A DNA stretch of 64,000 nucleotides, taken from positions 12,678-76,677 of the forward strand of contig JBBQGP010000002.1 in assembly GCA_038323095.1 (NCBI GenBank). The letters are read 5' to 3'. The first letter of the stretch is position 1; the number at the start of each line of letters is the position of its first letter. The position numbers and the translations under genes were made by a program. This document shows, piece after piece, positions 10,170-32,876 of the stretch. The notes below the pieces were generated by a model. The model did not search any database. It was given only the letters and a program-made list of their open reading frames with translations, and was not told the origin of the DNA. The stretch comes from Chloroflexia bacterium (GTDB taxonomy: Bacteria > Chloroflexota > Chloroflexia > Chloroheliales > Chloroheliaceae).

Positions 10170-10174
10170 CTTTT

Positions 10175-13711: not shown

Positions 13712-13729
13712 CGCCTTAAAATATCTTGA

Positions 13730-16928: not shown

Positions 16929-18356
16929 TTGTTAATTTTGTCTATTTTTAGGAGAGGAAAGTATTACTGGCGGTGGCTTCTTGCTGGCGCGGTTGTAGTA
17001 TTATTTACAACAATGTTGTCCACAGTTTTTATTAGTGAATGGAGTGCGGCTCAGGCCGGGGGGGTGAACGGCTCTTATAAGGTAAGCTATAACGTAGTTG
17101 AACAATGGGATAGTGGCTATTATACTGAGGTTAAAATTAGTAATACCGGCTCAACACCGATTTCTAATTGGACTATTAGCTGGCAGCTAACACAGAACGA
17201 GCAAAGCCTGGCAAGTACCTGGGGTGCTAAATGTAGCCTGAATATTGGGCGGATTAGCTGTACTGGAAGCTCCACTATTCGAGTAAACAGCTCTGTTCAG
17301 TTCGGCACTGATTTGTATGGTAACGGCAAGATAACCTCGCCTACCATTTTTACTGTTAATGGAGTTACTGTTTCTACTCAGGCAACCACATCGGCAACTA
17401 CTGTTGCTCCTACTGCGTCACAAGCTACTACCGCACCAGCGACCAGGACTACTGTCGCCGCCACCCCTACTAAGACGGCAGTACCCACTGCTACGCCTGC
17501 CAGGGCAACGGCGACGGCGGTACCCACCTCAAATACGCCACCACCGACTGCCGCCGCTCCCGTCCCGCCGTCGGCAAGTACGCCCGGTGGCTGGTGGCAA
17601 CCCACGCCGGATAGACCAATTCATTGGCACTGGCAGCTCTCTGATGAGTTTGCCTATCCCAGAGACGTACTAACGAATGTCGAGCTATACGATATTGACG
17701 GAGAGTACGCTACCGCAGACAACGTTGCCAAGCTCCACGCTCTTGGCCCTAACGTTAAGGTGATTTGCTATTTTGATGCAGGAGTTTACGAAACCTATCG
17801 TTCCGACGCTGGTCGCTTTCCTAAATCTGTAATTGGTAATGCCGATACTGGCTGGAACGGCTCTTACTGGCTCGACATCCGACAGACCGATGCTTTATTG
17901 CCAATTATGCGTGACCGAATGCAAAATTGGTGTAAAAACAAGGGTTTTGACGCGGTTGAGCCGGATGAGACAGAAGTTTGGACTAATAATTCCGGCTTTC
18001 CTATAACCAAAGCCCAAAACAATCTTTATAACCAAAAGATAGCTGAAATGGCTCATTCGCTGGGCCTTTCGGTAGGGCTAAAGGGTAATACTACCGAAGC
18101 ACCAGAGTTATGGTCTTACTTCGATTGGACACTCAATGAACAGTGCTGGCAGTACAAGGAATGTGATTCGTTGAAGACTAGCTTTATTGACCACAACAAG
18201 GCCGTTTTCAATATTGAGTACAACGTTAATCCTGATTGTACTCAGGCGAATAGCTGGCATATGAACTCGGCCCGTCGTGACCTGAATTTAGTTGGGCCAA
18301 CCAATTCGGCCTATCAATACAGCCCTTGTATTCCAGATTCCAGGAGCGGCTGGTAG
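16929..18356 (+). CDS. Secreted CBM2-like + Thr/Ala/Pro linker + GH114 (endo-alpha-1,4-polygalactosaminidase family) protein
   Basis: Signal peptide. CBM2-like YKVSYNVVEQWDSGYYTEVKISNTG..ISNWTISW. GH114 blocks IHWHWQL, LYDIDGE, VICYFDAGVYETYRSD, WNGSYWLDIR, GFDAVEPDETE, SVGLKGN, NEQCWQYKEC, AVFNIEY. The start may be TTG 16938, which is better spaced from GGAGG at 16923-16927. Confidence 0.75.
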   Translation: MLILSIFRRGKYYWRWLLAGAVVVLFTTMLSTVFISEWSAAQAGGVNGSYKVSYNVVEQWDSGYYTEVKISNTGSTPISNWTISWQLTQNEQSLASTWGAKCSLNIGRISCTGSSTIRVNSSVQFGTDLYGNGKITSPTIFTVNGVTVSTQATTSATTVAPTASQATTAPATRTTVAATPTKTAVPTATPARATATAVPTSNTPPPTAAAPVPPSASTPGGWWQPTPDRPIHWHWQLSDEFAYPRDVLTNVELYDIDGEYATADNVAKLHALGPNVKVICYFDAGVYETYRSDAGRFPKSVIGNADTGWNGSYWLDIRQTDALLPIMRDRMQNWCKNKGFDAVEPDETEVWTNNSGFPITKAQNNLYNQKIAEMAHSLGLSVGLKGNTTEAPELWSYFDWTLNEQCWQYKECDSLKTSFIDHNKAVFNIEYNVNPDCTQANSWHMNSARRDLNLVGPTNSAYQYSPCIPDSRSGW

Positions 18357-18385
18357 CAAGCAGCTATCCAAAATTTGAACACGTT

Positions 18386-18430
18386 AAAAGAAGTACAGTC
18401 TCCGTAACCTGCGGAGGTGTACTTCTTTTG
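18386..18430 (+). terminator. Rho-independent terminator after the first GH114 gene
   Basis: aaaagaagtacagtctccg / cggaggtgtacttctttt, about 17 bp of stem with a small bulge, ending in a T run. Confidence 0.75.
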
Positions 18431-18618
18431 ATGTCGCAAGCCTTTTTAAAGCCAAAACTTGTAAAACCCCGGTTTAGGCTGCTTCTAGTATCGTTATAGA
18501 CTTTAAACACAATTCAAAAGCGAATTAGAGGGAATAATCTTGTTTCTTAACCTTTTTGACTGCTATTGGGTAAATATTTGGAAGTTGTTAATTTACGCAA
18601 ACTGGTCTTCTCAAACTA

Positions 18619-18647
18619 TTGACATATAAAAAAATATATGCTACATT
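18619..18647 (+). promoter_or_regulatory. Candidate sigma70-type promoter inside the long non-coding region
   Basis: TTGACA (18619-18624), 17-bp spacer, TACATT (18642-18647). It would give a ~680-nt leader ahead of the SDR gene. Confidence 0.4.
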
Positions 18648-19035
18648 AACTTTAAGGGTTAACAAATAGACTAATCAGCGCCGCGTTTAATCAAACAAAA
18701 GCAAATTTCTTTTTGAACATTACAGGTTAGCGAGCGTTGTTGAGGAACAGCTATATTCTAACAATAGTTGGTATGCATGAGTTAAATGGATGAGACTCTG
18801 GATAACTTCTAAAGTCCCCCTCCAAATACAACCTAACATAACAAAGCTAAAAAATAACCCTAAGAGCAAAGCGTTATTTTAGTATTTCTAAACAATTTAG
18901 ACAACTAAAATAGCAGGGTTTGAAGGCATTTGAAAATGGGTTGAACCTGAACCAAATTGAGGATAAATTCGGGTTGTTTTATACTTCCAAACAAACAACA
19001 TAACTAAAATCTATTTAAGTTACGAAGCTGAATAA

Positions 19036-19275
19036 GGCTCAGGTTTTATTAATGTTTATTGTCAAGTTAGAAATCACCAAACTTTTGTTAAAGTTTGTCG
19101 TCAAGCTGGATAAGCTTAGGCTTTATTAAAGTTTGTCGTCAAACTGGATAAAAGTAAGAGCTTGTTAGAATTTGCCTAAGAAATTGGGGTAAAACTTGAA
19201 CTTTATTAAGGTTTGTTATTAATCCAGGTAAAACTTAGGCTTATTAGGATTGCCCTGAATTAGCAGTGGGTAACA
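19036..19275. repeat. Six degenerate tandem repeats, period ~37-41 bp
   Basis: Anchor tta(a/g)(a/g)gtttg occurs at 19049, 19088, 19126, 19165, 19206 and 19243. Each unit ends in (c/t)(t/a)gg(a/g)taa(a). Units 2 and 3 are nearly identical (ttaaagtttgtcgtcaa(g/a)ctggataa). Confidence 0.6.
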
Positions 19276-19331
19276 ATAATTTTCTTATTGCAGTTAATAA
19301 ATTATTAACTGCAAACACTATGGAGGAAACA

Positions 19332-20387
19332 ATGAATCGTTCAGTCTTGATTACTGGTGGTGCCGGCTTTATTGGTTCACACTTAGCTGAAGCCCTTTTG
19401 GATGCGGGAGAAGCAGTCACGATTATTGATGACCTTTCAACTGGTGCTGTTGGTAATATTCGCCACCTCAAGGCCCATCCCCGTTTTCGCTTTGTAATTG
19501 AGCCAGTGGCAAACCAGCAAGTTTTAGCCGAATTAGTGGACGAGTGTGATGTTATTGTACATCTAGCGGCGGCGGTGGGAGTGCAGCTAATTATCAATAG
19601 CCCGGTACGTACTATTGAGACCAACGTAGGCGGTACAGAAGTAGTTTTGAAGTGGGCCGCCAAGAAAGGCAAGCGAGTGCTAGTCGCCAGCACTTCCGAA
19701 GTTTACGGCAAGAGTACCGAACTTCCTTTCCGTGAGACCGCCGACCTTGTACTTGGCCCCTCCCATTTGGGCCGCTGGAGCTATGCCTGCTCCAAATTAC
19801 TGGATGAGTTTTTGGCATTGGGTTACTGGCAGGAAAAAGCGTTGCCTGTAACCGTTCTGCGCTTCTTTAATACAGTTGGGCCACGTCAGCTAGGTCGTTA
19901 TGGCATGGTTGTGCCGCGCTTTGTGCGTTCGGCCTTACGCAACGAACCACTCCAGGTTTACGGGGACGGGCAACAAACGCGCTGCTTTACCTACGTTGGT
20001 GATGCGGTTCGGGCAGTTATGTTGCTTTTAGATTGCCCCGACGCTATCGGTCAGGTGTTCAATGTTGGAAACCCGGAAGAAGTGACAATTGAGCAATTAG
20101 CCCGCCGGGTGATTGAAATAAGCGGTAGTCGCTCCGAGATTGCCTATATTCCCTATTCGCAGGCTTACGAAGGCGGAGCCGGGTACGAAGATATGCGTCG
20201 CCGCGTGCCATGCATTGATAAATTGGGCCGAGCAACTGGCTACCAGCCGCAAGTAAAGCTTAACGCTATCTTGCAATCTGTTATAGATTACGAGCGCAAG
20301 AATATGGAACACCATATTACTGCTTTCCCGGTTCTAAGCCACTCAGTTTCAATTACCAATTCCGAACTTGAGGCAGTGTCAGCCTAA
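19332..20387 (+). CDS. Extended-SDR NAD-dependent nucleotide-sugar decarboxylase/epimerase (ArnA-C / UXS-like)
   Basis: GGAGG at 19322-19326, 5 nt before ATG 19332 (MNRSVLITGGAGFIGSHL). Motifs STSEVYG and catalytic YACSK. The listed GTG 19266 start lies inside the repeat array. Confidence 0.75.
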   Translation: MNRSVLITGGAGFIGSHLAEALLDAGEAVTIIDDLSTGAVGNIRHLKAHPRFRFVIEPVANQQVLAELVDECDVIVHLAAAVGVQLIINSPVRTIETNVGGTEVVLKWAAKKGKRVLVASTSEVYGKSTELPFRETADLVLGPSHLGRWSYACSKLLDEFLALGYWQEKALPVTVLRFFNTVGPRQLGRYGMVVPRFVRSALRNEPLQVYGDGQQTRCFTYVGDAVRAVMLLLDCPDAIGQVFNVGNPEEVTIEQLARRVIEISGSRSEIAYIPYSQAYEGGAGYEDMRRRVPCIDKLGRATGYQPQVKLNAILQSVIDYERKNMEHHITAFPVLSHSVSITNSELEAVSA

Positions 20388-20489
20388 GTTAGAGTTAAAG
20401 CGTCTTCAGGTACAAACTGAATTCAAATGTTGTGGGTTGAGCTTTAGCACTGAAAAACTAACATGCACCGAGAGAGGTAAGATGAGACT

Positions 20490-21785
20490 ATGCTAGTCGA
20501 CAAAATTAGATTAAAACAGGCAAGGATTGGAATTGTTGGAATGGGTTATGTCGGCCTACCCGCCGCCGTTACCTTTGCGGAAAAGGGTTTCAAAGTAACC
20601 GGCTTTGATATTGCGAAGTGGAAAGTTGAGCGGATTAACCGGGGCGATAGTTTTATTGAGGATATTTCAAGTAGCCAGCTAGGGGCAGTAGTTGCGATGG
20701 AACGCTTCCGGGCTACTTCCAACTCAGACGAACTAGCCGAGCAAGATGTCATTATTATCGCAGTTCCCACTCCCCTAAATAAGACCCGTGAACCTGACCT
20801 GACGGCGGTGCGCTCGGCAACAGCTGATATTGCCCGTAACTTACAGCCCGGTCAACTGATAATCCTGGAAAGCACCACCTATCCTGGGACCACGGAAGAA
20901 GTGGTTAAACCTATCCTGGAAAAAAGCGGGTTAAAGGCCGAAGAGGATTTTTATCTGGCTTACTCCCCGGAACGAATTGACCCAGGCAGTAAGTGGAATT
21001 TTGAGGATGTGCCGAAGGTCGTAGGTGGAATGACTCCCGCCAGCCTGGATGCAGCTTGTGCGCTTTACCAGCAAATACTCAAGCAGGTAGTGCCTATCTC
21101 TTCCACTCAGGCTGCCGAAATGGTCAAATTATTCGAGAACATTTTCCGGGTAGTGAATGTGGCCCTAGTCAATGAAATGGCCCTGTTATGCAACAGAATG
21201 AAGCTAAACATGTGGGAAGTGCTGGATGCGGCCAGTACCAAGCCTTACGGGTTTATGAAGTTTACGCCCGGCCCAGGAGTAGGCGGGCATTGTATCCCGG
21301 TAGACCCCTTCTACCTGACCTGGAAGGCTCGCGAGTACGGTTTTCACACCCGCTTTATTGAATTAGCCGGAGAAATCAATCTTCAGATGCCCTACTACGT
21401 CAAGGAACTGATCACACGTAGCCTTAACCTGCAAGGGAAATCGCTCAAAAACTCGAAGGTGCTGCTATTGGGAGTGGCATATAAGAAAGACGTTGGAGAT
21501 ATGCGAGAGTCTCCGGCCATCAAGGTGATTGAGCTGCTAGACGAGACGGAAGCCCAGCTCGTTTACCACGACCCTTTTGTGTCTGAATTTGAAGAAGGTA
21601 CTCACCGGCTACACTCGATGGAGCTAACCGACGCGCTTTTACAAGAGGCCGATTGTGTAGTCATCCTTACTGACCATACTTGCTTTGATTATGCCAACAT
21701 TGTCCGGCAAGCTCAAATGGTGGTAGATACACGCAACGCAACCAAAGCTATTAGCCAGGACCGAAACAAGATTATCCTACTTTAG
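20490..21785 (+). CDS. Nucleotide-sugar 6-dehydrogenase (UDP-GlcNAc/ManNAc dehydrogenase group: WecC/WbpA/TviB-like)
   Basis: IGIVGMGYVGLP Rossmann motif and catalytic-Cys motif GGHCIPVDP, typical of the N-acetylhexosamine dehydrogenase group. Confidence 0.8.
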   Translation: MLVDKIRLKQARIGIVGMGYVGLPAAVTFAEKGFKVTGFDIAKWKVERINRGDSFIEDISSSQLGAVVAMERFRATSNSDELAEQDVIIIAVPTPLNKTREPDLTAVRSATADIARNLQPGQLIILESTTYPGTTEEVVKPILEKSGLKAEEDFYLAYSPERIDPGSKWNFEDVPKVVGGMTPASLDAACALYQQILKQVVPISSTQAAEMVKLFENIFRVVNVALVNEMALLCNRMKLNMWEVLDAASTKPYGFMKFTPGPGVGGHCIPVDPFYLTWKAREYGFHTRFIELAGEINLQMPYYVKELITRSLNLQGKSLKNSKVLLLGVAYKKDVGDMRESPAIKVIELLDETEAQLVYHDPFVSEFEEGTHRLHSMELTDALLQEADCVVILTDHTCFDYANIVRQAQMVVDTRNATKAISQDRNKIILL

Positions 21786-21927
21786 AGCCTGAAATTTGGA
21801 CAAAGCTGGACAATGTCTGCATTACTTTAATGTAAACTGCCAGGCTAATCCCTAACCAGCAATCCGGCTTTGTCTAAATTCTTAAATTACTACCGACACT
21901 TATAGTTAGACCTTCAGGAGGTTGAAT

Positions 21928-24066
21928 GTGATTAATAGAATAAGCTTATTTCAGGGGGTAGTCGTACGGTTGGGCCTGGTATGCGCTCTCTTTGTAGCAA
22001 TTATGCTGACCGTGGTACCAAACCCAGCCGAAGCCGCTAAAGATAAGAAAGATAAGAAAGGCCATCATCAAATTGTGACTGGCCCGACCACGCCATCCCG
22101 GATAACTACTACGCCGCCTCGTGTTCTTGATCCGGCCCAACCACTCAAAGCCAAGAAAAAATCTGGGACTGGCCCGTTAAACACCAATTTTGCCGCCGCC
22201 CTTGCCCCTGTCGCCGCCGCGTCTACCAATCATACGCTGGATGCACGCGACATGAAGATTTTGCTTATTAGTGCTGTAGGCGGCTCTGACCCTGATTATC
22301 AGGCGATGAGTGCTTTTCTCAACCAGCTTGGTACTCCATTTGATACGCTGATTGCCTCTACCACGGTGCTTTCTTCAAATATGCTTTGGGATGGTGTGGC
22401 ACACGGCTACTATCAGGGTGTCATCTTGACCGATGGCGATTTACTATATGAATCCCCGGTTGGGAGCGGTAACTATGTAAGTGCTTTTACTGCTGATGAA
22501 TGGCAAACCCTCTCGAATTATGAAACCATGTTCGGGGTGCGGCAAGTCACTTCTTATACTATTCCTGGTTTGCCAGAAAGCTACGGCCTGTCAGACCCAA
22601 ATTTTGCCTCTCAGGATACCAGTGTTACTCCCCTCAAAGCGAACCTTACGGCTGCTGGAAAAACCGTTTTTCCATATATTAACGCAGCCAATCCTATCAC
22701 CATTCAATATGCCTGGACTTACCTGGCTAAAGTAGAATCGCCCCAGCCTGGTACGGTAGTCACCCCCTTACTAAATACTACCAATGGCTACACTGTCGCG
22801 GCTGTAAAGAAATATGCCGACGGGCGCGAGAATCTAGCTATAACCGCCGAAAACAATTCCTTTTTGATACACTCCCAGCTTTTGTCCTACGGTATCATTA
22901 ACTGGGTTACTAAGGGGCTATTTTTGGGTGAGCGGCACGCTACACTGAATATACAGCCTGACGACTTATTTATTGAAGATGATATTTGGGACACTCAGGT
23001 AATGACTGACACCACCGGCATTAGCTATCGCTTGACCGGGAACGATTTTAAACAATTTATGAGCTGGCAAAATTCTAGCCGCGTTAAATATCCTCTGGCT
23101 TCCGGGTTGAAGATTGAGTGGCCTTTCAATGCCGATGGAACTAATCCGAATAACTATAATTACGTTGATACACTAACACCAGAGGTTCTAAAAGATAAGG
23201 CTAGTTTCAACTATATCAACCACACCTTTACCCACGCTAATTTGGATAATATTGATGCAGCTACGCTTACCACAGAACTTCAAAAGAATAATAATTACGC
23301 CACAAACAAAGGGTTGACACCCTATTACAAAGACTCGATGATCCAACCTGATATTTCCGGGTTGTTCAATCCAGTTTTTGCTAATACTGCTTATCAGCAA
23401 GGCATCCGCTATATTATCTCGGACGCATCCCGGCCCGAATGGAGCAATCCTAGCCCTAACGCAGGTTTTTATAGCCAGTACCAATCCGGCCTGCTGATTA
23501 TCCCGCGTCATGCTTCTAACCTGTTCTACAATTTGACAACTCCCGCAGAATGGGTGTCGGAGTACAATTGTTACTACGGCCCACAGGGAGTTTGCCCAGA
23601 CTTTCCCAACTCTACCCGTTGGAACACTAATCTCAATTATCAGCAGATATTGGATGACGAATCAAATTTCTGGCTTTCGTACCTGTTAAAGTGGGACATT
23701 GACCCGCTTATGTTCCACCAACCAAATGCCAGAGCCTACGATGGAATTCATTCTTTATTAGGAGATTTGGTTGAAGCCACTCTGAAAAAATATACCAGCC
23801 TCTATAACTTGCCAATTCAAAACTTGACCCAGCACGAGGTTGGTATCAAAATGGCAAACCGAATGGCCTATAACGCCTCTGGCCTACAGGGTACGCTATA
23901 TCCAGGACAAAAAATTGTTTTGACTACTACGAAGGCGGCTTCAGTTCCAGTTACCTATGCCAAAAGCATAAGCGGAGCTGGTTTCCAAAATGAACTATAT
24001 GGCGGTCAATATATCTCAACTATTCCGATGGCGGCGGGCCAGACGCGCACGATTACTTTGCCATAG
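21928..24066 (+). CDS. Secreted 712-aa protein, candidate metal-dependent polysaccharide de-N-acetylase (Agd3/CE18-like hypothesis)
   Basis: GTG 21928 lies 6 nt after AGGAGG. Signal peptide. QPDD (aa 345-348), INHTFTHAN (HxxxH, aa 434-438) and PLMFHQP (aa 595-601) sit in CE4-like order. The coding call is solid. The function call is tentative. Confidence 0.5.
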   Translation: MINRISLFQGVVVRLGLVCALFVAIMLTVVPNPAEAAKDKKDKKGHHQIVTGPTTPSRITTTPPRVLDPAQPLKAKKKSGTGPLNTNFAAALAPVAAASTNHTLDARDMKILLISAVGGSDPDYQAMSAFLNQLGTPFDTLIASTTVLSSNMLWDGVAHGYYQGVILTDGDLLYESPVGSGNYVSAFTADEWQTLSNYETMFGVRQVTSYTIPGLPESYGLSDPNFASQDTSVTPLKANLTAAGKTVFPYINAANPITIQYAWTYLAKVESPQPGTVVTPLLNTTNGYTVAAVKKYADGRENLAITAENNSFLIHSQLLSYGIINWVTKGLFLGERHATLNIQPDDLFIEDDIWDTQVMTDTTGISYRLTGNDFKQFMSWQNSSRVKYPLASGLKIEWPFNADGTNPNNYNYVDTLTPEVLKDKASFNYINHTFTHANLDNIDAATLTTELQKNNNYATNKGLTPYYKDSMIQPDISGLFNPVFANTAYQQGIRYIISDASRPEWSNPSPNAGFYSQYQSGLLIIPRHASNLFYNLTTPAEWVSEYNCYYGPQGVCPDFPNSTRWNTNLNYQQILDDESNFWLSYLLKWDIDPLMFHQPNARAYDGIHSLLGDLVEATLKKYTSLYNLPIQNLTQHEVGIKMANRMAYNASGLQGTLYPGQKIVLTTTKAASVPVTYAKSISGAGFQNELYGGQYISTIPMAAGQTRTITLP

Positions 24067-24242
24067 TGTTCTATTATTAAGATTATAGGCTGTCAATTTG
24101 AAGTAAGTGGCAGCCTGTAATCCGATAGATTGCAAATTTTTTAGGATATTAGATTATTCGAGCATATTCTACTTTTATTTACTATCAAGCTCCACTAAAC
24201 TTGGATAAGCCCAGGGTCTTCTAACACAGGGAATGACGAACA

Positions 24243-27200
24243 ATGCTTAATTACAATAGGTCAAATGCTGATTTTTCTCAGAACAGACCAAAAGTAAAAG
24301 TTGCTAAAATTAAATTATTTTTTTCAAGCGTTGCCGAAAAAATTCTGCCAGCAAATTCTCTTTTTGCTACCTTGTCAAACGTGGCCCAGCCAGAATTAGT
24401 GCTGGGTAACTCTCAAGCTACGCTTGAACCTGAATTGCAGCAACCAAATGAAACTGAAATACCTCCGGCAAACGTTCCCACTAAACCAGCTCTCAAAGTT
24501 TTACTGATTGCGGAAGGTACTTATCCATTTCATTGGGGCGGAGTTAGCACCTGGTGTCATTTACTGATACGTGATTTGCCCGAAGTAGATTTTAGCCTGT
24601 ATAGCATAGTAGCCGACCCACTGATTAAACCTCAAATTAATTTACTCGACAATGTGGTAGAATTCATCCCTGTACCGCTCTGGGGTGTACTTGGCACTTT
24701 AGAGCTAAGCCCAAATTTAGGATTGGCCGAGTTACGTCACCGCAAACAGCACACCAGCGAGGCAGTTATTGCGGAAAAATTTGTGCCGGTATTTCGCGCT
24801 TTTATCAGGGATATGTTCCTCAGCGACACCGAGGCGGAACGTATGGGGGTGCATATTCACCAGATGTACCGGTTTTTCCTGGAATACGATTTCGATACTA
24901 CTTTTCATTCGCAAGCCGTTTGGAATTGCTACGTAAAAGCTATGCAGCAGGATTTCCCGCTTGCCGCCGCGCATCACGGTTATAGCGAGGCGACTTTTAC
25001 TTTGTCAGATATAACTCAGGGATTACAATGGCTGTATCATTGGTGTTTTCCTCTGGCAAAACCACTACCCCAGGTTGATGTGGCCCACGCTTCTACCGCA
25101 GGTATTAGCACAATGATTGGCGTAATTGCCAAGCTGGAATATGGGACGGCCTTTCTGCTTAGTGAACATGGTATTTACTTGCGAGAACGCTATTTAGCCG
25201 AAGCCAGCAATCCAAACACATTATTTCTCAAGCTGCTGGCCTTGCGCTTTGCGCGTCGCATGACCGACCTCAGCTATGTAGTAAGTGACCAAATTTCGCC
25301 CTGTTGCGACTACAACCAGCGTTGGGAACTGCAAAACGGAGTTCCGCCGGAGCGATTACGCACTATTTATTATGGGGCGGATGCCGACAAATTTTATGCT
25401 GGGGACAAGCCAATTGGAGACCCGCCGGTGGTGGTTTGGGTAGGACGTATTAATCCGCTCAAAGATGTGATTACCCTCCTGAAAGCGGCTGCAATAGTCC
25501 ATGAAACGCGGCCTGATATTAAATTCCGGCTTTATGGCTCTCCCCCTAAAGAGGATCAATCTTATTACGAGGAATGTTTGCTGCTACGGGCCAAGCTTGA
25601 CCTGGAAGAAGTCGTTATTTTTGCCGGTTATGCTTCAAATGCGGCTGTCGCTTATAACGAGGGAGATGTAGTATTACTTTCCAGCATTTCGGAAGGTTTC
25701 CCCTTCGCTACTTTAGAGGCAATGCTTTGTGGCAAGCCAGTAGTAGCAACCTCTGTGGGGGGCTTGCCAGAACAAATTGAGGGTTGCGGAATTGTGGTAG
25801 AGCCACGTAACCCGCAAGAAATGGGTGAGGCCGTCCTTACCCTGATGAACGACCCGGAATTATGCGCGCGCTATGGCAAAGCGGCCCGCGAGAAAGCGTT
25901 GCAGGAATTCAGTGTCCACCAATCCCGCGAAGCTTATCTATCAAGCTATCTTCGGGTCATGAAACAAAATAATCAGGAAAATGTCTTGGCAGGTAAAAGC
26001 GAATACCAATTGCAGCAAGTTCAGCAGCTATTAGCCCAAACCGCCGCAACCCAAAACAGCCTGCCTACAGCATCAAACCTGGATTGCGAAGTTGCGACCA
26101 AATTTGATATTGAACAAACGAACGATGCTAATAATGGCAGGCAACCCGCTACTAGCAAGGCCGTACCGCTTCGCGCTTCTATGCGTAGGTTGCAACTTTT
26201 GGTTTTGAATAAGCCACAGGAATGGTTGCCCCACGACCCGGAAAGTATTCGTACTATGGCTAAAGAAATAACCAGCCAAAATTTCCAGCCGGTTGATTAT
26301 TTGGAAATAGCTGCTATACTTGAATCAAAAGGCATTACTGACGAATTTGCTTCGCAACATCATAACGCTCCTGACACTTTTGAGCTGGCAAAGGCAGTAT
26401 TAGCAGCAATCCGGGCTGAACCACCAATAGCCGCACCGCCGGAGATTCCGACAGAACCAACCCAAAGCTTTAAGCAAGTGCTAGTCAGCTATTTACAAGG
26501 GCCAATTTCGTTTTTGCCCAGTTTGCTGGTGCTACTTACCATCCAGATTTTTAGTTTTGGCGGTCAATGGGCCGGAGGGCAAATAATGGCCCTAAGCCTG
26601 GGCATGAGTGCAGGCTTGCTTATAACCAACGGTTTTCTCCAGGCGGTAATGCGACGGGCCTCGATTTGCCTTTCGTTAGGTAATTCGCAATCTGCCCGCC
26701 GGTTTCTGATTCGCGGTTTGGGCGTAGCCGCTTTGATTGTCGTAGCGGTGGCACTATTAACCTTTCTGATTACAAGCTGGACAGAAGTTATAACATTGGA
26801 AGAGCGGCTTATTTTCTGCCTGGCTTTTGTGGCTCTTTCGACAATTTGGCTGGTGGGTGGCCCGTTGGCACTGGTGCAAGCCCAGATATGGCTGGGTATT
26901 GGACTGGGAGGGGGTTTGTTTACCGGCTTTGTGGCTGACCGAGTGGCGGCATTATTTACTGATTTGCATCTAGTGTTTGGTACTGTTCTGGGGTTTCTGG
27001 TAACACTTGGCCTGATTATTTGGGCGGAAACACGGGCTTTTGCCCCTAGAAGTAAGGCTGAAAAGGATAGCAAAATACTTTTACCTTCACCGGCTTATCT
27101 ACTTTACGAAGCTCTGCCTTACTTTATCTATGGCACACTCTACGCCCTGTTTATAATCGCCCCCCATTTTCTAGGCTGGTTTGGGAAACTTGGCGAAAAC

Positions 27201-27797
27201 CAAACCCGGCAATTCGCTATTACTAGCCTTGAAGTCGGGCTAACCCTGGCAATGTCGCCAGTAGTTTTGGTTAGTGGAATTATAGAACGAACCCTGCGCT
27301 TGTTCTGGACTAAAGCGGCGGTAGCCCAAAAAACTACTCCCGGTTTGCAAGTAGAGCAGTTTGGTAAAACGTTACTCAATTTTTACTGGCAGCAGTGGAG
27401 GCTTTATGAGCTAGTTTTGGCGGGACTTAGTCTTGCTTTCGCGCTACCGCTTTGGCTCGCGTTGGATAGCGGGCTGCTAAAAGGCTTGCTTGGCTCTAAT
27501 CCGACTACTGCTATAATTTTCTTTCTCACGGGACTGGTAATCTTCTTTTTGTTGGGGCAAGGGCTGTTTAACTGTGTATTTTGTATTACGCTGGCCCGGC
27601 CCCAATTCGCCGTCCGTGCTGTGGCTATTGCTATGGTGGTTATGTTCGCACTTGGAACGCCTTTGAGTCTATGGGTAGATTTTAGCTATTGTTTAGTAGC
27701 GTTTATTGCAGGAGTTTTCACTTTCGTAACAGTATCGTCCCGCCTGACCCAGCGGCTTTTAGCCTCAGCGGACTATTACTACTTTTCATTTTTTTAA
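24243..27797 (+). CDS. PelF-type GT4 glycosyltransferase (DUF3492 + GT1 domains) fused to a C-terminal ~420-aa polytopic membrane domain, 1184 aa
   Basis: Blocks match P. aeruginosa PelF as I recall it: LLIAEGTYPFHWGGVSTWCHLLI, HASTAGIS...LLSEHGIYLRERY, VGRINPLKDV, LLSSISEGFPFATLEAMLCGKPVVATSVGG. From about aa 760 there are at least 10 hydrophobic helices. Confidence 0.8.
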   Translation: MLNYNRSNADFSQNRPKVKVAKIKLFFSSVAEKILPANSLFATLSNVAQPELVLGNSQATLEPELQQPNETEIPPANVPTKPALKVLLIAEGTYPFHWGGVSTWCHLLIRDLPEVDFSLYSIVADPLIKPQINLLDNVVEFIPVPLWGVLGTLELSPNLGLAELRHRKQHTSEAVIAEKFVPVFRAFIRDMFLSDTEAERMGVHIHQMYRFFLEYDFDTTFHSQAVWNCYVKAMQQDFPLAAAHHGYSEATFTLSDITQGLQWLYHWCFPLAKPLPQVDVAHASTAGISTMIGVIAKLEYGTAFLLSEHGIYLRERYLAEASNPNTLFLKLLALRFARRMTDLSYVVSDQISPCCDYNQRWELQNGVPPERLRTIYYGADADKFYAGDKPIGDPPVVVWVGRINPLKDVITLLKAAAIVHETRPDIKFRLYGSPPKEDQSYYEECLLLRAKLDLEEVVIFAGYASNAAVAYNEGDVVLLSSISEGFPFATLEAMLCGKPVVATSVGGLPEQIEGCGIVVEPRNPQEMGEAVLTLMNDPELCARYGKAAREKALQEFSVHQSREAYLSSYLRVMKQNNQENVLAGKSEYQLQQVQQLLAQTAATQNSLPTASNLDCEVATKFDIEQTNDANNGRQPATSKAVPLRASMRRLQLLVLNKPQEWLPHDPESIRTMAKEITSQNFQPVDYLEIAAILESKGITDEFASQHHNAPDTFELAKAVLAAIRAEPPIAAPPEIPTEPTQSFKQVLVSYLQGPISFLPSLLVLLTIQIFSFGGQWAGGQIMALSLGMSAGLLITNGFLQAVMRRASICLSLGNSQSARRFLIRGLGVAALIVVAVALLTFLITSWTEVITLEERLIFCLAFVALSTIWLVGGPLALVQAQIWLGIGLGGGLFTGFVADRVAALFTDLHLVFGTVLGFLVTLGLIIWAETRAFAPRSKAEKDSKILLPSPAYLLYEALPYFIYGTLYALFIIAPHFLGWFGKLGENQTRQFAITSLEVGLTLAMSPVVLVSGIIERTLRLFWTKAAVAQKTTPGLQVEQFGKTLLNFYWQQWRLYELVLAGLSLAFALPLWLALDSGLLKGLLGSNPTTAIIFFLTGLVIFFLLGQGLFNCVFCITLARPQFAVRAVAIAMVVMFALGTPLSLWVDFSYCLVAFIAGVFTFVTVSSRLTQRLLASADYYYFSFF

Positions 27798-27820
27798 GAA
27801 GCTGGGAATTAAAGAAAAGC

Positions 27821-29482
27821 ATGAGAAATCCTCATTCAACAAATCGCCGCCGCTTTTTGATATATGGTGCGCTTGGCCTGGTTGGGGCCGCCGGAGTAGG
27901 TAGTCTTAAAACTATATTCAATCAGGAAGCGGATCCCCAACAAACTGCTAAGATTAATCCAATACCTACCAATGCTGTGACCCGAACCGTAGCCCCAACC
28001 CAAACGATTAGCCCGACCCCAACCAGCACTCCGATTCCGTGGCGCAATCCAATTGAAGCAGAAAACAAACAGTCTGGCAGTCCTAATTGGGTCATTACTA
28101 AAAGTGGCGATGATACGCTACTTCAAATTAAAGGTTATGCTTCGGCGACCAGCGTAAATAAAGGTGAGCCGATAAATCTGCACGTTTCGGTCAACCCGGC
28201 TCAAGATTACGCAATGGAAATCTACCGCATCGGTTGGTACAACGGGGTCGGCGGACGCTTGATGCAAACAGTCGGGCCGATAGCTGGCTCAACTCAAAAT
28301 ATACCTGCGCCGGACAGCTTAGGTACAGTCGCCTGTAATTGGCCGGTGGCTTACAGCTTGAAGGTGCCAGCCAGTTGGACGAGCGGAGTGTATCTGGTCA
28401 AGCTTACTAACACACAAGGGTGGCAAAATTACATTCATTTTGTGGTACGGGACGATGCGCGTGCTTCGGATTTGTTATTTCAGTGTAGCGTGACCACCTA
28501 TCAGGCTTATAACAATTTTGGTGGCAAAAGTCTTTATCCCGACAACAGCCTGGACGGGAAGGCGGCCCGCAAAGTTTCGTTTGACCGACCTTACGCCAAT
28601 ATTGGAGCTTTACAATTTTACGATTGGGAGATGCCACTGCTCCGTTTTATAGAGAAAAATAGCTACGATATATCCTATTGTACTAATTTAGATTTGCATT
28701 CCAACGCTAGTTTAATAGATTCTCACAAGGCTTTCCTTTCAACCGGCCACGACGAATATTGGAGCATGGCAATGTATGACAATGCTCTGGCAGCCCGTAG
28801 TAATGGTAAGCATTTGGCTTTTTTTGGAGGTAATGCGGTATACTGGCAAATCCGAATGGAAAGCTCGGCTGAGGGCATACCCAATCGGATAGTAACTTGT
28901 TACAAAAGTTATTATCTGGAAGACCCTCAATATCCTGGCCCTAAGACCACGTATCTCTGGCGCGAACTTATACCAGGCAAGCCTAGTTCGGAAGCAAGCC
29001 GACCCGAAAACCAGCTAATCGGCATTATGTACGATAGCTTTATCAATAGTACCGTTGGACAAGCATATGTGGTAACAAATAGTGACCACTGGGTCTATGC
29101 TGGAACGGGCTTTAGCAATGGAACAAGTGTGCCGGGGATTGTGGGTTACGAATGGGACAAACGCTACAGCAATGGTTTAGAGCCTGGCGGATTGGTGCAA
29201 CTTTCTAACTCATTAGTGGTAAACGAGAATAAAGTCAACACCTACGCGCACTCTTCAATTTATCAGGCCAGCAGTGGAGCATGGGTCTTTGCTACCGGCA
29301 CAATTTACTGGAGCTATGCTCTCGACTTTTGCGGTTTTCAAACTAACGATTTACGGAATGTAGGCATCCAGCAGACCACCAGCAATGTATTAAACCGCTT
29401 TGTTAATAACGGAGCGAAACCTTCAGCTTTGTTTGGTAATGTTTCTACAGGTTTAAAAAGCACGGCTACCCCTTCGCCCTGA
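27821..29482 (+). CDS. Tat-exported protein of the N,N-dimethylformamidase large-subunit-like family (function unknown)
   Basis: ATG 27821. Twin-arginine signal NRRRFLIYGALGLVGAAGVG. Family-like blocks IYRIGWYNGVGGR, WTSGVYLVKL, TTYQAYNNFGGKSLY, VSFDRPY, STGHDEYWS, FFGGNAVYWQIRME. Confidence 0.6.
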   Translation: MRNPHSTNRRRFLIYGALGLVGAAGVGSLKTIFNQEADPQQTAKINPIPTNAVTRTVAPTQTISPTPTSTPIPWRNPIEAENKQSGSPNWVITKSGDDTLLQIKGYASATSVNKGEPINLHVSVNPAQDYAMEIYRIGWYNGVGGRLMQTVGPIAGSTQNIPAPDSLGTVACNWPVAYSLKVPASWTSGVYLVKLTNTQGWQNYIHFVVRDDARASDLLFQCSVTTYQAYNNFGGKSLYPDNSLDGKAARKVSFDRPYANIGALQFYDWEMPLLRFIEKNSYDISYCTNLDLHSNASLIDSHKAFLSTGHDEYWSMAMYDNALAARSNGKHLAFFGGNAVYWQIRMESSAEGIPNRIVTCYKSYYLEDPQYPGPKTTYLWRELIPGKPSSEASRPENQLIGIMYDSFINSTVGQAYVVTNSDHWVYAGTGFSNGTSVPGIVGYEWDKRYSNGLEPGGLVQLSNSLVVNENKVNTYAHSSIYQASSGAWVFATGTIYWSYALDFCGFQTNDLRNVGIQQTTSNVLNRFVNNGAKPSALFGNVSTGLKSTATPSP

Positions 29483-29537
29483 ATAGCCCTAAAAAGTCTT
29501 TTGAAGCATTGGCAGGGAAAAAAAAGGTAGGTACTTT

Positions 29538-31238
29538 ATGAGGTGCAACAAGCTGATTTGGGTGCTATGGTTTCTGGTTATAATGCCGGTTCTGGTGGCG
29601 TGTGCCTCGAAATCCAACCAAAACTCTATGACATATGGCGATGCTAAATTCAAACAAACTTGGGAATATAGCGATAAGCTGGTGAGTGAAGTACCGGGCG
29701 CAGGCCGCGGTTATACCTGGGGGCAAAATTCCTTTGGCATTTTGCAGGAAGAATATAATGAAGCACCGGCGGGTCGCCGGATGGTGCAATATTTTAACAA
29801 GAGCCGGATGGAACTTGCGCCGGATGGTAATTCTGTTACCAATGGGCTGCTTACTAAAGAACTTGTGGGCGGGCTGCGTCAGGTTGGTGAGGCTAAATAC
29901 ATTCAGTTTGAGCCTAGCAAAACCCAAATTGCCGGGGATGATAATAGTGCCGGAGGTAATACTATTGCCCCAGCTTACGCCAGCTTCAAAAAAGTTGTTA
30001 CATTTAGTTCGGGCGAAAATATTGCCCCTTCAAGGGTGAATCAAGCGGCAAACCTGGGACTGGGTAAAGCTGGTGAAGTAGCCACTCTCACCAATCCGCC
30101 AACTCAGCTATTAATTGGTTACTACGAGTCAACGCTGGGACACAATGTTCCTAAAGTTTTTGAAGATTACCAAAACTTGAGCGGGCAGGTTTGGAATGGG
30201 ACAAACTATCAAAAAGGCCGGGTCTATACTGAAAATCCAACTACTAATGTTTTTGGCTACCCTATCTCGGAAGCCTACTGGGTTAGAGCGGTAGTCGCCG
30301 GGGTCGAGAAAGACGTATTGGTACAACTTTTTGAGCGCAGGGTATTAACCTATACTCCTTCAAATGCTGAGCCTTTTAAAGTAGAAATGGGTAATATTGG
30401 GCAGCACTATTACCAGTGGCGTTATCTGTCTGGTACTGCTATCCCCGCGCCACCGGCGGCACCGGCGGCAAAGTGGTGGCTACCTACGCCAGATAAACCA
30501 ATTCACTGGCACTGGCAACTCTCTGAGGATTTTGTTTATCCCAGGGATGTACTGCCTAACGTAGAAGTGTACGACATTGATGGAGAACACGCTACAGCTG
30601 AGACGGTTGCCAAGCTCCATGCTCTTGGCCCTAACGTTAAGGTGATTTGCTATTTTGATGCAGGAGTTTATGAAACCTATCGTTCCGACGCTGGTCGCTT
30701 TCCTAAATCTGTGATTGGTAATGCCGATACTGGTTGGGATGGCTCTTACTGGCTCGACATTCGACAGACTAATATTTTGCTCCCGATTATGCGTGACCGA
30801 ATTCAGCAGTGGTGCAAGGATAAAGGTTTTGATGCTATCGAGCCGGACGAGACCGAGGTTTGGAGTAATAAATCAGGCTTTTCCATTACCAAAGAGCAAA
30901 ACAACTTTTATAATCAGAAAATAGCTGAAATAGGACATTCGATGGGTCTTTCGGTAGGATTAAAAGGTAACACTGGTGAAACGCCGGAGCTATGGCCCTA
31001 TTTCGATTGGACTTTGAATGAGCAGTGCTGGCATTTCAAGGAGTGTAATTTGCTTAAAACCAGTTTTATTGACCACAACAAAGCAGTTTTCAACATTGAA
31101 TACGAGACTAGCCCGGATTGCAACCAGGCGAATAGCTGGCATATGAATTCGGCCCTGCGTGACTTAAATCTGGTTGGCTCAACTAATTCGGCTTATCGCT
31201 ATACCCCCTGTGTGTCTAACTCTAAAGATAAGTGGTAA
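29538..31238 (+). CDS. Lipoprotein with N-terminal repeat-module domain + GH114 domain (paralog of 16929-18356)
   Basis: Lipobox PVLVAC|AS. The N-terminal half contains VQYFNKSRMEL and VQLFERRVLTY modules. The C-terminal ~255 aa are roughly 80-85% identical by eye to the other GH114 domain. Confidence 0.75.
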   Translation: MRCNKLIWVLWFLVIMPVLVACASKSNQNSMTYGDAKFKQTWEYSDKLVSEVPGAGRGYTWGQNSFGILQEEYNEAPAGRRMVQYFNKSRMELAPDGNSVTNGLLTKELVGGLRQVGEAKYIQFEPSKTQIAGDDNSAGGNTIAPAYASFKKVVTFSSGENIAPSRVNQAANLGLGKAGEVATLTNPPTQLLIGYYESTLGHNVPKVFEDYQNLSGQVWNGTNYQKGRVYTENPTTNVFGYPISEAYWVRAVVAGVEKDVLVQLFERRVLTYTPSNAEPFKVEMGNIGQHYYQWRYLSGTAIPAPPAAPAAKWWLPTPDKPIHWHWQLSEDFVYPRDVLPNVEVYDIDGEHATAETVAKLHALGPNVKVICYFDAGVYETYRSDAGRFPKSVIGNADTGWDGSYWLDIRQTNILLPIMRDRIQQWCKDKGFDAIEPDETEVWSNKSGFSITKEQNNFYNQKIAEIGHSMGLSVGLKGNTGETPELWPYFDWTLNEQCWHFKECNLLKTSFIDHNKAVFNIEYETSPDCNQANSWHMNSALRDLNLVGSTNSAYRYTPCVSNSKDKW

Positions 31239-31312
31239 GGCTAAAGCCTTGTTAATAAGCAAACAGGCTTCGCTACTCAAATTATATAGCTGAGATAAAG
31301 GTTACGTTACTT

Positions 31313-32047
31313 ATGGATACTTTATTTTCTGAACCTGCCCCAGGGTTTGGCCGAGCTACAAACCAAAATCTTTTCGTTATCTACTATGGCTGGCTGATTG
31401 CAGATAGTGCGGGGAAGCCAAATCAGGTGGCACAGTGCATTGCGGCGGCCCAACCGAAGTTGCTAATTGCCTCATTTTATACTTTTGAACCCAAATATCT
31501 TAATTTGAGTGAACCAGTACGGGCGATGCTACATCAGGCAGGAGTAAGCATCTTTGCTTATGTCGATACGGATTATGCCAGACGAGACCGTGATATAGTC
31601 AAAGCCGAAGCTTATAATTATCTTAGTCAAGACATGGATGGTATCTTTTTCGATCAGGCTTGCAACTTTTTAGACGGCTCTCAGTTCGCCTATTATCAGG
31701 ATTTGTATGAGTATGTACGAAGGTATAACAAACTGGTTATCCTTAATCCGGGTATCGGTCTACCGGGCGAGGAAATAATGAACGTAACCGATATTTTAAT
31801 GGTAGAACATGCCTGGCGCGAACTCTACCAAACTAATCCGTGGTTTACGGCTTACCCACCTGAACGGTTTATGGGAAATTCTAGCAACGAACACCCCGAA
31901 CTGTCCTGGCACTACCATATTAATTGTGAGGTTGCGACCCAGGATACGAAAGAAGCCTGGAATAAAGGGGTTGGTTGGCATTTTAGCACCGACAAATACA
32001 TTACTTTGCCGGATTGGTTTTCACAATACGCTTCTAACCTGCGCTAA
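31313..32047 (+). CDS. Spherulin4 / Sph3 (GH135)-like protein, no signal peptide
   Basis: Spherulin4-like blocks: VSIFAYVDTDYARRD, MDGIFFDQ (family consensus GIFFDE), VILNPG, DILMVEH. The N-terminus is not hydrophobic. Confidence 0.6.
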   Translation: MDTLFSEPAPGFGRATNQNLFVIYYGWLIADSAGKPNQVAQCIAAAQPKLLIASFYTFEPKYLNLSEPVRAMLHQAGVSIFAYVDTDYARRDRDIVKAEAYNYLSQDMDGIFFDQACNFLDGSQFAYYQDLYEYVRRYNKLVILNPGIGLPGEEIMNVTDILMVEHAWRELYQTNPWFTAYPPERFMGNSSNEHPELSWHYHINCEVATQDTKEAWNKGVGWHFSTDKYITLPDWFSQYASNLR

Positions 32048-32189: not shown

Positions 32190-32218
32190 TTGACAAATGA
32201 GCCAAAATGCCTTATAAT
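32190..32218 (+). promoter_or_regulatory. Consensus sigma70-type promoter upstream of the Lrp/AsnC gene
   Basis: TTGACA (32190-32195), exactly 17 bp, TATAAT (32213-32218). Confidence 0.55.
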
Positions 32219-32752: not shown

Positions 32753-32876
32753 AAAACTGTTCTAAAAATCTGGTAGCCCAAAGAAAAGAGCGGCAACGTT
32801 CTTTTTTTGTGCCTTCGTATCTTTAATAAAGATTTATAAAAGAATTACAAAATTATAAAGAAAGGTGGAAATAAAA

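Follow-up and report, generated by a model that had tools for sequence, protein, structure and literature searches.

The window analysed here is a stretch of 64,000 nucleotides from a Chloroflexia bacterium of the family Chloroheliaceae (GenBank assembly GCA_038323095.1, contig JBBQGP010000002.1, positions 12,678 to 76,677). Between its positions 16929 and 32047 lie eight open reading frames (ORFs), all on the plus strand and designated genes A to H (Table 1). They combine a PelF-type glycosyltransferase fused to a membrane domain, two enzymes of sugar-nucleotide metabolism, an Agd3-type de-N-acetylase, a protein of the DMFA2_C family, two proteins bearing a glycoside hydrolase family 114 (GH114) domain and a GH135-like protein. 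With fairly high confidence, the locus can be read as a synthase-dependent exopolysaccharide system of the Pel/galactosaminogalactan (GAG) type.

Gene content of the locus

The eight co-directional genes claimed in a preliminary description of this stretch were all found as ORFs, and profile searches supported its assignments to GH114, GH135 (Spherulin4) and PelF. Export signals are predicted on the products of genes A, D, F and G and on none of those of genes B, C and H. Fifteen related loci (L003-L010 and L012-L018) were compared with the cluster; they come from Chloroflexia, Anaerolineae, Caldilineaceae, Gaiellaceae, Acidimicrobiia, Mycobacteriales and a few unassigned contigs. A locus identical to that of the window was met in metagenome assemblies only, and the genomes matching it best are Chloroflexales, Herpetosiphonaceae and 'Chloroflexia' MAGs, in line with an origin in class Chloroflexia.

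The AT-richness mentioned in the preliminary description is real but modest: the GC content is 46.0% across the locus versus 49.2% in the rest of the window, that of third codon positions (GC3) is 44-53% in the genes, and much of the deficit comes from a single intergenic gap of 33% GC. Horizontal transfer as a recent island was considered and is not supported, since the GC shift is small, the window carries no tRNA gene and no mobile-element genes were found among the flanking ORFs scanned.

Table 1. Features of the cluster, its surroundings and related loci (positions refer to the window unless a locus is named; E-values of genes A to H and of the XRE-type gene are from Pfam)
Feature	Position	Strand	Description
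Gene A	16929-18356	+	Signal peptide, CBM_2 (4.6e-14), Thr/Pro-rich linker, GH114 (2.4e-61)
Gene B	19332-20387 (ORF from 19266)	+	Extended short-chain dehydrogenase/reductase (SDR), epimerase/dehydratase family (2.6e-53); start 19332 is the public gene call
Gene C	20490-21785	+	Three-domain UDPG_MGDP nucleotide-sugar dehydrogenase
Gene D	21922-24066	+	N-terminal hydrophobic helix, CBM87_Agd3 (9.8e-16), Agd3_CE (7.2e-33)
Gene E	24243-27797	+	1184 residues; DUF3492 (1.7e-44), Glycos_transf_1/GT4 (1.2e-31)
Gene F	27821-29482 (ORF from 27689)	+	DMFA2_C (4.5e-117), RRRFL motif of twin-arginine translocation (Tat)
Gene G	29538-31238	+	Lipoprotein, GH114 (5.9e-61) at the C-terminus
Gene H	31313-32047	+	Spherulin4 (GH135)-like (2.7e-16; 60.3 bits, cut-off 30.2)
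GalE UDP-hexose 4-epimerase	35316-36314	-	TIGR01179 (428 bits, cut-off 262); outside the operon
Candidate regulator	15067-16437	- (divergent)	XRE-type helix-turn-helix, HTH_3 (6.3e-12), with AAA/STAND-like ATPase, AAA_16/AAA_22
Terminator-like hairpin	18398-18418	+	Nine-pair stem, then T-run; consensus match only; just 3' of gene A
Promoter-like site	18619-18647	+	TTGACA-17-TACATT, extended -10 TG
Imperfect direct repeat array	19035-19280	+	About 39 bp, core TTATTAAAGTTTGTCGTCAA; within the leader of 33% GC, immediately 5' of gene B
Sigma-70 consensus promoter	32190-32218		TTGACA-17-TATAAT (12/12); 73 bp upstream of the AsnC/Lrp-family gene
AsnC/Lrp-family regulator	32291-32752		Ahead of the EamA transporter
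EamA transporter	32865-33971		
GH135-like homologues of H	L005:19250-19966; L006:9487-10233; L013:11919-12623; L014:8674-9477		
DMFA2_C in relatives	L015:5574-7755 and 13759-16089; L016:8828-11089		

A PelF-PelG fusion as synthase

The N-terminal half of gene E passes the NCBIfam equivalog of PelF (NF038011) with 168.6 bits for a cut-off of 100, and the region around residues 745-1184 contains about 12 hydrophobic helices, in agreement with the proposal in the preliminary description of a PelF-homologous GT4 glycosyltransferase fused to a polytopic membrane domain. The protein is made of a PelF-type GT4 domain (about residues 85-575), a helical linker (about residues 660-725) and a 12-helix membrane domain of the PelG type (about residues 745-1184), PelG being a member of the multidrug/oligosaccharidyl-lipid/polysaccharide (MOP) exporter superfamily. 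The translation includes an SEGFPFATLE stretch (EX7E) that is almost invariant across the family alignment, and a helical module of about 60 residues (LE.AA.LES.GITD...) ahead of the first membrane helix is conserved among the synthases.

The membrane domain has no direct match in Pfam or NCBIfam, and its assignment comes from two other lines of evidence. An AlphaFold2 model built with 85 homologues (pLDDT 92.5, pTM 0.87) was compared with the PDB using Foldseek, and the best matches all belong to the MOP superfamily (MATE, the Wzx flippase WzxE and MurJ), with E-values down to 1.6e-5 and target-normalised TM-scores of 0.6-0.67; PelG itself is a 12-helix MOP exporter (PMC13254593). Furthermore, PelG (PF16933) is the sole non-glycosyltransferase family matched by 44 full-length members of the synthase family (five of them, best E-value 2.8e-6). 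When the membrane domain was used as phmmer query, 445 representatives were recovered, many of them stand-alone proteins of about 520-550 residues. Two of ten sampled stand-alone homologues exceed the PelG gathering cut-off of 29 over nearly the full profile (P0257 with 52.2 bits, P0213 with 40.2 bits), and both match the membrane domain of gene E at 1e-24 to 1e-31. Judged by this transitive homology and by the modelled fold, the membrane half of gene E is a divergent PelG. As the polytopic domain is of the PelG MOP exporter type, gene E is a PelF-PelG fusion.

Synthases of this type occur both fused and split. The fused architecture (about 1050-1250 residues) is found in more than 100 sequence clusters, which belong by their source names to Chloroflexota, Actinomycetota, Dormibacteraeota and Acidobacteriota; the NCBI label of these fused proteins is simply PelF.

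The other components of the Pel system were searched for in all ORFs of at least 100 residues located between 10 and 38 kb of the window. None carries a signature of PelA, PelB, PelC, PelD or PelE; no GAF, GGDEF, PilZ or PelD/E-like domain was matched, although a short or very divergent PelE could escape such a scan, and neither a tetratricopeptide repeat (TPR)/porin protein nor a PelC-like lipoprotein was found. The preliminary description had likewise seen no PelA fusion, PelB/C, PelD or PelE. As PelA, PelD and PelE are missing from the scanned ORFs, a canonical Pel operon is ruled out, and the cluster falls outside the canonical Pel system.

Predicted exported and polymer-modifying enzymes

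Gene D, which the preliminary description had proposed as a possible Agd3-type de-N-acetylase, matches both CBM87_Agd3 and Agd3_CE above threshold. Its product aligns with the structure of Agd3 (6NWZ; phmmer, 3.1e-27), to which it is about 25% identical, and the four catalytic motifs CM1-CM4 of this enzyme (Asp-Asp, HxxxH, Arg and Met-x-His) are complete. Indeed, D347/D348, H434/H438, R529 and M597/H599 of gene D correspond to D377/D378, H510/H514, R613 and M666/H668 of Agd3, so that the residues found to be essential by mutagenesis (the base/metal Asp-Asp, HxxxH, the CM3 Arg and the CM4 Met-x-His) are all kept. Gene D is predicted to encode a membrane-anchored or secreted de-N-acetylase of the Agd3 type, which associates a carbohydrate-binding module (CBM87) with a family 18 carbohydrate esterase (CE18).

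Both GH114 domains, the presence of which was correctly recognized from the outset, align to the structure of Ega3 (6OJ1; 5.5e-32, 114 bits). Asp189 and Glu247 of Ega3, its nucleophile and acid/base, are conserved within EPD and NEQC as Asp346 and Glu404 in A and as Asp437 and Glu495 in G, and the two genes are predicted to encode hydrolases of the endo-alpha-1,4-galactosaminidase type. The two domains are 82% identical over 254 residues, which points to a recent duplication that has put one catalytic module behind two different targeting modules. Gene A starts with a hydrophobic segment, and its CBM2-GH114 architecture is also found in L015 and L016. Gene G has an N-terminal hydrophobic segment and an LVAC lipobox at residues 19-22. 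In relatives from Anaerolineae, the GH114 domain is the C-terminal part of a secreted protein of about 970-990 residues (L004:17374-20352; L005:16304-19213); that of L004 also bears a fervidolysin-type prodomain, a CAP domain and a subtilase domain (Peptidase_S8), and thus shows the unusual combination of protease and galactosaminidase in one protein.

The N-terminal module of gene G, of about 280 residues (within residues 1-320, positions 29538-30500), has no Pfam match. It has 1735 homologues at E<=1e-3, with 33 invariant columns, and the named top matches come from metagenome-assembled genomes (MAGs) of Chloroflexi. Modules of this type precede varied envelope enzymes (Amidase_3, Polysacc_deac_1, SGNH, CAP, sortase, PD40/DPPIV). 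The module looks like a surface-anchoring or wall-binding domain, apparently typical of Chloroflexi. Its AlphaFold2 model (pLDDT 91) has no fold match in the PDB (best Foldseek E-value 0.18) and possibly corresponds to a new fold.

The Spherulin4/Sph3-like protein of the preliminary description corresponds to gene H. The family assignment holds, the Spherulin4 match being above threshold. The invariant Asp114 of its FFD motif aligns with the Asp of the FFDE motif in the Sph3 structure 5C5G, where the following Glu is replaced by Gln in gene H. The H-type proteins of Chloroflexi have the second catalytic Glu shifted by one position in the alignment; actinobacterial homologues have an Sph3-like VFE. 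The likeness does not extend to localization: unlike Sph3, gene H and four of its homologues are devoid of both a signal peptide and any hydrophobic segment (Kyte-Doolittle means over 19 residues do not exceed 1.31) and would therefore, on sequence grounds, be cytoplasmic.

Gene F belongs to DMFA2_C, a family with very many secreted members, for which at least 3797 matches are obtained at E<=1e-10, many of them in fusion with fn3, TIG or Big domains; the literature search found no paper on this family (PF20254). Its only solved relatives are an N-acetyl-(R)-beta-phenylalanine acylase (1.7e-12) and the large subunit of dimethylformamidase (DMFase; 1.6e-7). Residues Tyr440 and Glu521 of DMFase align with Tyr and Glu in gene F, and an equivalent of Tyr399 is hinted at only by the YQAYNNF / YTYQAYANY alignment. 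Tyr440 and Glu521 are reportedly (Arya et al. 2020) iron ligands of the 2-Tyr-1-Glu site of DMFase; PDB entry 6LVD, compared with 6LVB, has an Ala at position 440, consistent with an active-site mutant, which supports this role indirectly. Gene F would encode a putative Tat-exported, metal-dependent amidohydrolase. The Tat-exported amidase-family-like protein of the preliminary description was thus right as to the Tat motif and wrong as to the family, which is DMFA2_C and not that of the amidase-signature enzymes.

The DMFA2_C gene is located directly downstream of the synthase gene in the window, L015 and L016 and close to it in L003; its position after the synthase is a trait of a Chloroflexia subclade. 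L015, the closest long relative of the window cluster, carries two DMFA2_C genes, a split one upstream of the synthase gene (two ORFs, possible frameshift) and another directly downstream. No Agd3 homologue was found within 10 kb in L015, which, given its two DMFA2_C genes, suggests that DMFA2_C may substitute for the CE18 deacetylase. L016 carries Agd3 and DMFA2_C together. It is a reasonable hypothesis that DMFA2_C proteins act as second or alternative polysaccharide de-N-acylases.

Sugar-nucleotide enzymes

The preliminary description had proposed a nucleotide-sugar dehydrogenase/decarboxylase pair, and profiles indeed identify gene B as an SDR of the UDP-xylose synthase (UXS) type and gene C as a dehydrogenase of the UDP-N-acetylhexosamine (UDP-HexNAc) type. 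Gene C passes TIGR03026 with 445 bits. It scores 226-244 bits against PDB 4R16, Cap5O and 3G79 and 228-308 bits with the models of WecC (UDP-ManNAc dehydrogenase) and TviB, versus at most 134-200 bits for UDP-glucose dehydrogenases (at most 134 bits in the PDB), and is closer to the WecC and TviB models than to Ugd. These scores place it among the nucleotide-sugar 6-dehydrogenases of the UDP-N-acetylhexosamine clade.

The best PDB relatives of gene B are human UXS1 (184 bits) and the C-terminal domain of ArnA, ahead of PelX (146 bits), UDP-GlcA 4-epimerase (127 bits) and WbpP (85 bits), and among the NCBIfam models PRK11908 (UDP-4-keto-pentose/UDP-xylose synthase) scores highest, with 177 bits, which is less than its cut-off. 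Besides YxxxK (YACSK), it carries STSEVYG, which includes the Thr-Ser-Glu signature of decarboxylases and not the Ser-Ser-Ser of 4-epimerases; STSEVYGK does not vary among the gene B orthologues found in 10 of the related loci, whereas the other SDR that relatives carry in the cluster has SSAAVYG (epimerase-type) or SSSAVYG. Gene B appears to be a UXS/ArnA-type SDR closer to UDP-uronate decarboxylases than to 4-epimerases, and its exact reaction is suggested by this placement.

The most economical route for the pair would lead from UDP-HexNAc to UDP-HexNAc-uronate and then to a decarboxylated 2-acetamido-pentose or 4-keto sugar. In Bacillus cereus/cytotoxicus, a UDP-GlcNAc dehydrogenase and a UDP-GlcNAcA decarboxylase (UXNAcS) reportedly make UDP-XylNAc (Gu et al. 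2010 JBC; mentioned in PMC5078965). As in that pair, a HexNAc-type dehydrogenase stands beside a UXS-like SDR in a polysaccharide cluster, the specificity of genes B and C being that suggested by their family placement. A TviB/TviC-like route to UDP-GalNAcA, of the Vi-antigen type, was also considered, gene C being TviB-like (228 bits); it was rejected because the TviC model gives gene B no more than 76 bits and because gene B carries the STSE motif of decarboxylases where an epimerase would have SSS.

The GalE-type epimerase reported downstream of the cluster was confirmed (Table 1); it is separated from gene H by the AsnC regulator, the EamA transporter and one unannotated ORF. In L015 a homologue with 68.7% identity is located immediately upstream of the synthase gene, inside the cluster, which would tie GalE functionally to the pathway. 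This enzyme probably supplies UDP-Gal(NAc). Second SDRs of the GalE/PelX type are also found inside the clusters of L004, L006 and L013, the second SDR of the relatives matching 4ZRM with 296 bits and PelX (6WJ9) with 190 bits.

Two Chloroflexia relatives carry within the cluster a gene of the CofD/YvcK family (PF01933; L015:7835-8917, L016:1431-2504), located between the dehydrogenase gene and the Agd3 or GalE gene; the window cluster is devoid of it. YvcK (GlmR) of Bacillus subtilis binds UDP-GlcNAc and regulates UDP-GlcNAc supply, and the gene of the relatives may encode a regulator of precursor supply.

Recurrence of the gene set

The synteny of the cluster was checked in the 15 related loci. 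Beside the synthase gene, an Agd3 gene (often duplicated) and a dehydrogenase gene are each found in 13 loci, the STSE-type SDR in 11 (10 by motif scan and L017 by position and Pfam), and GH114 and Spherulin4 genes in eight loci each, several of the absences falling where a contig ends. The core set of Agd3, PelFG, dehydrogenase and decarboxylase-type SDR thus recurs across two phyla, Chloroflexota and Actinomycetota. L013, a Mycobacteriales MAG, has nearly the full set (dehydrogenase, Agd3, PelFG, SDR, two GH114, Spherulin4 and epimerase). L015, with 63-75% identity per protein, shows the same start as the window cluster, a CBM2-GH114 gene followed by a 1-kb gap and then by the SDR and dehydrogenase genes. 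The domain E-values and the occurrence of the same gene set in 15 other loci exclude a chance assemblage.

In L017 (Chloroflexales), a NusG paralogue and a Wzz/ParA/CbiA-like protein (of the BY-kinase type) precede the cluster (5149-7383). Such NusG/Wzz-type regulators are typical of Wzx/Wzy capsule loci and stand here beside a synthase-type system.

Proposed pathway and alternatives

From these assignments we infer the substrates, linkage, order of action and regulation of the following pathway. In the cytoplasm, GalE, the dehydrogenase C and the SDR B would supply UDP-amino-sugar donors, that is, UDP-GalNAc plus UDP-HexNAc-uronate and/or a decarboxylated pentosamine derivative. The retaining PelF-type GT4 domain of gene E would polymerize these donors into an alpha-linked chain, which the fused PelG-type MOP domain would move across the membrane without a PelD/PelE module responding to cyclic di-GMP (c-di-GMP). 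Outside, the anchored CE18 enzyme D would remove part of the N-acetyl groups and make the polymer cationic and adhesive, with the Tat-exported protein F as a possible second de-N-acylase, and the GH114 enzymes, the lipoprotein G and the secreted, CBM2-bearing A, would trim or release the de-acetylated polymer.

Several points weigh against this reading. The polymer, its linkage and its charge are suggested by distant characterized homologues (about 25% identity to Agd3, 114 bits for Ega3), and genes B and C remain below every NCBIfam equivalog cut-off that would indicate a specificity. GalE lies 3.3 kb from the cluster on the opposite strand, and gene A is cut off from genes B-H by 975 bp and a terminator-like hairpin. 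Lastly, gene H appears cytoplasmic, which fits poorly with the Sph3 model.

The preliminary description had proposed a Pel/GAG hybrid pathway for a GalNAc/GalN-type polymer. In substance, the domains and the synteny support the pathway; a pure GalNAc/GalN polymer has become less certain, as few partners of the synthase are as well conserved as the dehydrogenase and the SDR. The cluster could nevertheless make ordinary Pel, i.e. only a partly de-acetylated alpha-1,4-GalNAc polymer, the pair serving another glycan or being dispensable. The synthase does pass the PelF equivalog, GalE-type epimerases occur in or near the clusters, and the characterized fungal CE18 and GH114 enzymes are specific for GalNAc/GalN polymers (PMC7229062, PMC12054363). 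However, in two phyla the pair accompanies the synthase as frequently as Agd3 (dehydrogenase in 13 and STSE-type SDR in 11 of the 15 loci) and more frequently than GH114 or GH135, which is hard to explain if its product is not used; this conservation argues that the product enters the polymer. An ordinary Pel is rather unlikely, and the polymer is probably not plain Pel.

A bolder version of the Pel/GAG-type reading would make the product a chemically distinct cationic polymer, with a backbone partly or wholly derived from UDP-HexNAc-uronate or from a 2-acetamido-pentose (XylNAc/AraNAc-type), made by a minimal c-di-GMP-independent PelF-PelG synthase and processed in the Chloroflexia subclade by DMFA2_C as a new polysaccharide de-N-acylase. 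Taken as a whole, this proposal is speculative and should be held as doubtful.

The product could also be a secondary glycopolymer attached to the cell wall instead of a matrix polysaccharide released into the biofilm. In favour of this, the bacterium is probably a Chloroflexi of the monoderm type, genes of an LCP-family ligase, a GT87 and a GT9 are found 16-20 kb downstream, and the tether module of gene G is common to envelope-acting amidases, sortases and deacetylases. Against this, the LCP gene is not linked with the biosynthetic genes and no such gene turned up in those relatives that were inspected, the cluster has no undecaprenyl-phosphate priming transferase, and the PelFG architecture is that of synthase-dependent secretion, so that a wall polymer seems improbable. 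A degradative or predatory arsenal against foreign Pel/GAG, placed fortuitously next to a glycosyltransferase, is very improbable: three to four secreted enzymes of hydrolase/esterase type (one of them bearing a CBM2 of the chitin/cellulose type), the genes of the GH18 chitinase-like protein and of the large M23 peptidase just upstream and the seemingly independent transcription of gene A speak for it, but many genomes, belonging to two phyla, combine these hydrolases and the esterase with the synthase and the enzymes of sugar-nucleotide supply, the operon lacks a transporter for uptake, a kinase and a deaminase that would serve the catabolism of amino sugars, and GH114 and GH135 enzymes are integral to biosynthetic GAG and Pel systems (PMC7229062, PMC9860509).

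Relationships with known systems

The closest published counterparts are the operons listed by Bamford et al. 2020 (Nat Commun 11:2450, PMC7229062), who reported Agd3 homologues in 45 bacterial species and, in Actinobacteria and Deinococcus-Thermus, operons described as "Agd3, GTB, TM, Epi, GH114, GH135" (Fig. 8c and Supplementary Data 2). Their list includes Actinoplanes sp. SE50/110 and Streptomyces lavendulae ('Agd3, GTB, TM, GH135, GH114'), with similar strings in Micromonospora, Saccharothrix, Conexibacter, Kytococcus, Deinococcus, Thermus and Meiothermus; none of the operons in it is from Chloroflexi. These operons, as purely bioinformatic there as the cluster is here, were taken by these authors as support for a bacterial ancestry of the fungal GAG genes. 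No later paper characterizing any bacterial Agd3-type system was found in the literature search. The operons of Bamford et al. share with the window cluster Agd3, a GT-B glycosyltransferase, a multi-span membrane protein, 'Epi' SDR genes, one or two GH114 genes and, in some of them, a GH135 gene. The window cluster differs in that GT-B and TM, listed there as separate items, form a single gene with a PelG-type membrane part, and in that the SDR beside the synthase, partner of a HexNAc-type dehydrogenase, bears the STSE motif of decarboxylases. It further adds the DMFA2_C protein, the putative anchor module, apparently typical of Chloroflexi, and the phylum Chloroflexota.

The pelDEA(DA)FG system of Bacillus cereus ATCC 10987 (PMC7112168; PMC13254593) also combines a PelF GT4 with a PelG MOP exporter, without outer-membrane components, and has beside the exporter a de-N-acetylase with three domains and a single-pass membrane anchor; its product is likewise probably an alpha-1,4 amino-sugar polymer. 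In the window, by contrast, PelD (the c-di-GMP receptor) and PelE were not found, PelF and PelG are fused, the deacetylase is of the CE18/CBM87 and not of the CE26/CBM114 type, and there are stand-alone GH114 and GH135-like enzymes as well as an in-cluster dehydrogenase/decarboxylase pair. More generally, CE18/CBM87, GH114 and GH135-like proteins take the place of the GH166 and CE21 domains of canonical PelA or of the CE26 of PelA-DA.

The uge3-sph3-gtb3-agd3-ega3 cluster of Aspergillus fumigatus shares with the window homologues of Agd3 (all motifs), Ega3 (catalytic Asp and Glu) and Sph3 (at the family level), together with a 4-epimerase, located near the cluster in the window and inside it in relatives. 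Its synthase Gtb3, compared by description only, is a 'transmembrane glycosyltransferase' of about 300 kDa, versus 130 kDa for the PelF-PelG fusion. Fungal Sph3 is membrane-anchored and faces outward, whereas gene H has no anchor, and nothing in the fungal cluster corresponds to the genes of the dehydrogenase, the decarboxylase and the DMFA2_C protein.

The window cluster is a member of a class that has been catalogued but not studied experimentally, and it comes from a new phylum, Chloroflexota. As Bamford et al. 2020 (PMC7229062) already list such operons and draw the same evolutionary inference, its novelty is lower than estimated in the preliminary description; the present results refine an already published idea and will not surprise specialists. 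What is added is the PelG identity of the membrane component and its fused form, the decarboxylase-type 'Epi' tightly paired with a HexNAc-type dehydrogenase, the DMFA2_C accessory and the GH135-like protein without signal.

Cationic, partly de-acetylated amino-sugar polymers such as Pel, GAG and poly-N-acetylglucosamine (PNAG) are central biofilm adhesins, and the fungal GAG cluster is proposed to derive from bacterial clusters of the Agd3 type. The extension of this class to Chloroflexota concerns filamentous bacteria abundant in sludge, mats and soil, communities whose flocculation is controlled by matrix polymers. It provides as leads a PelF-PelG fusion that would dispense with PelD/PelE, a sugar pair predicting a non-Pel composition, a candidate function for the orphan DMFA2_C family and a seemingly cytoplasmic protein of the GH135 type.

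Transcription signals and neighbouring genes

Genes B-H are separated by 23-176 bp, with no convincing terminator within, and are predicted to form an operon-like unit. Upstream of them, the 975-bp gap (18357-19331) contains the terminator-like hairpin, and gene A looks like a transcription unit of its own. The promoter-like site of the gap is probably the start of the B-H operon, which would give a predicted leader of about 0.68 kb ahead of gene B; the site falls within a TTGACA...AAAAAAT block that L015 has kept in its corresponding gap of 1 kb. The repeat core TTATTAAAGTTTGTCGTCAA has three matches at <=3 mismatches for 0.02 expected, and a mismatch-tolerant search gives four copies spaced by 38-39 bp and 80 bp. 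These repeats of about 39 bp are not reported by Tandem Repeats Finder and not conserved in L015. A riboswitch or other known RNA in the leader was considered and rejected: no Rfam family reached its gathering threshold anywhere in the window, and the interval 18300-19400 remained without a match even at E<=1. At the other end, a perfect sigma-70 consensus precedes the AsnC gene, an argument for H being the last gene of the operon.

The XRE-AAA protein encoded divergently upstream of gene A is a candidate regulator of the cluster, related loci having BTAD/SARP-type or PucR-type regulators at a comparable position. Directly upstream of this gene, three minus-strand genes (8529-14953) possibly provide a group of lytic enzymes destined for secretion; they encode a GH18 chitinase-like protein (8529-10169), a 1178-residue protein with TPR and M23 peptidase domains (10175-13711) and an Ig-like protein with FixG_C (13730-14953). 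Further downstream, co-directional genes (47758-52760) encode a GT9, an LCP (LytR-CpsA-Psr) ligase with LytR_C and a 789-residue GT87 membrane glycosyltransferase; this block, separate from the exopolysaccharide cluster, fits a wall glycopolymer pathway of the monoderm type.

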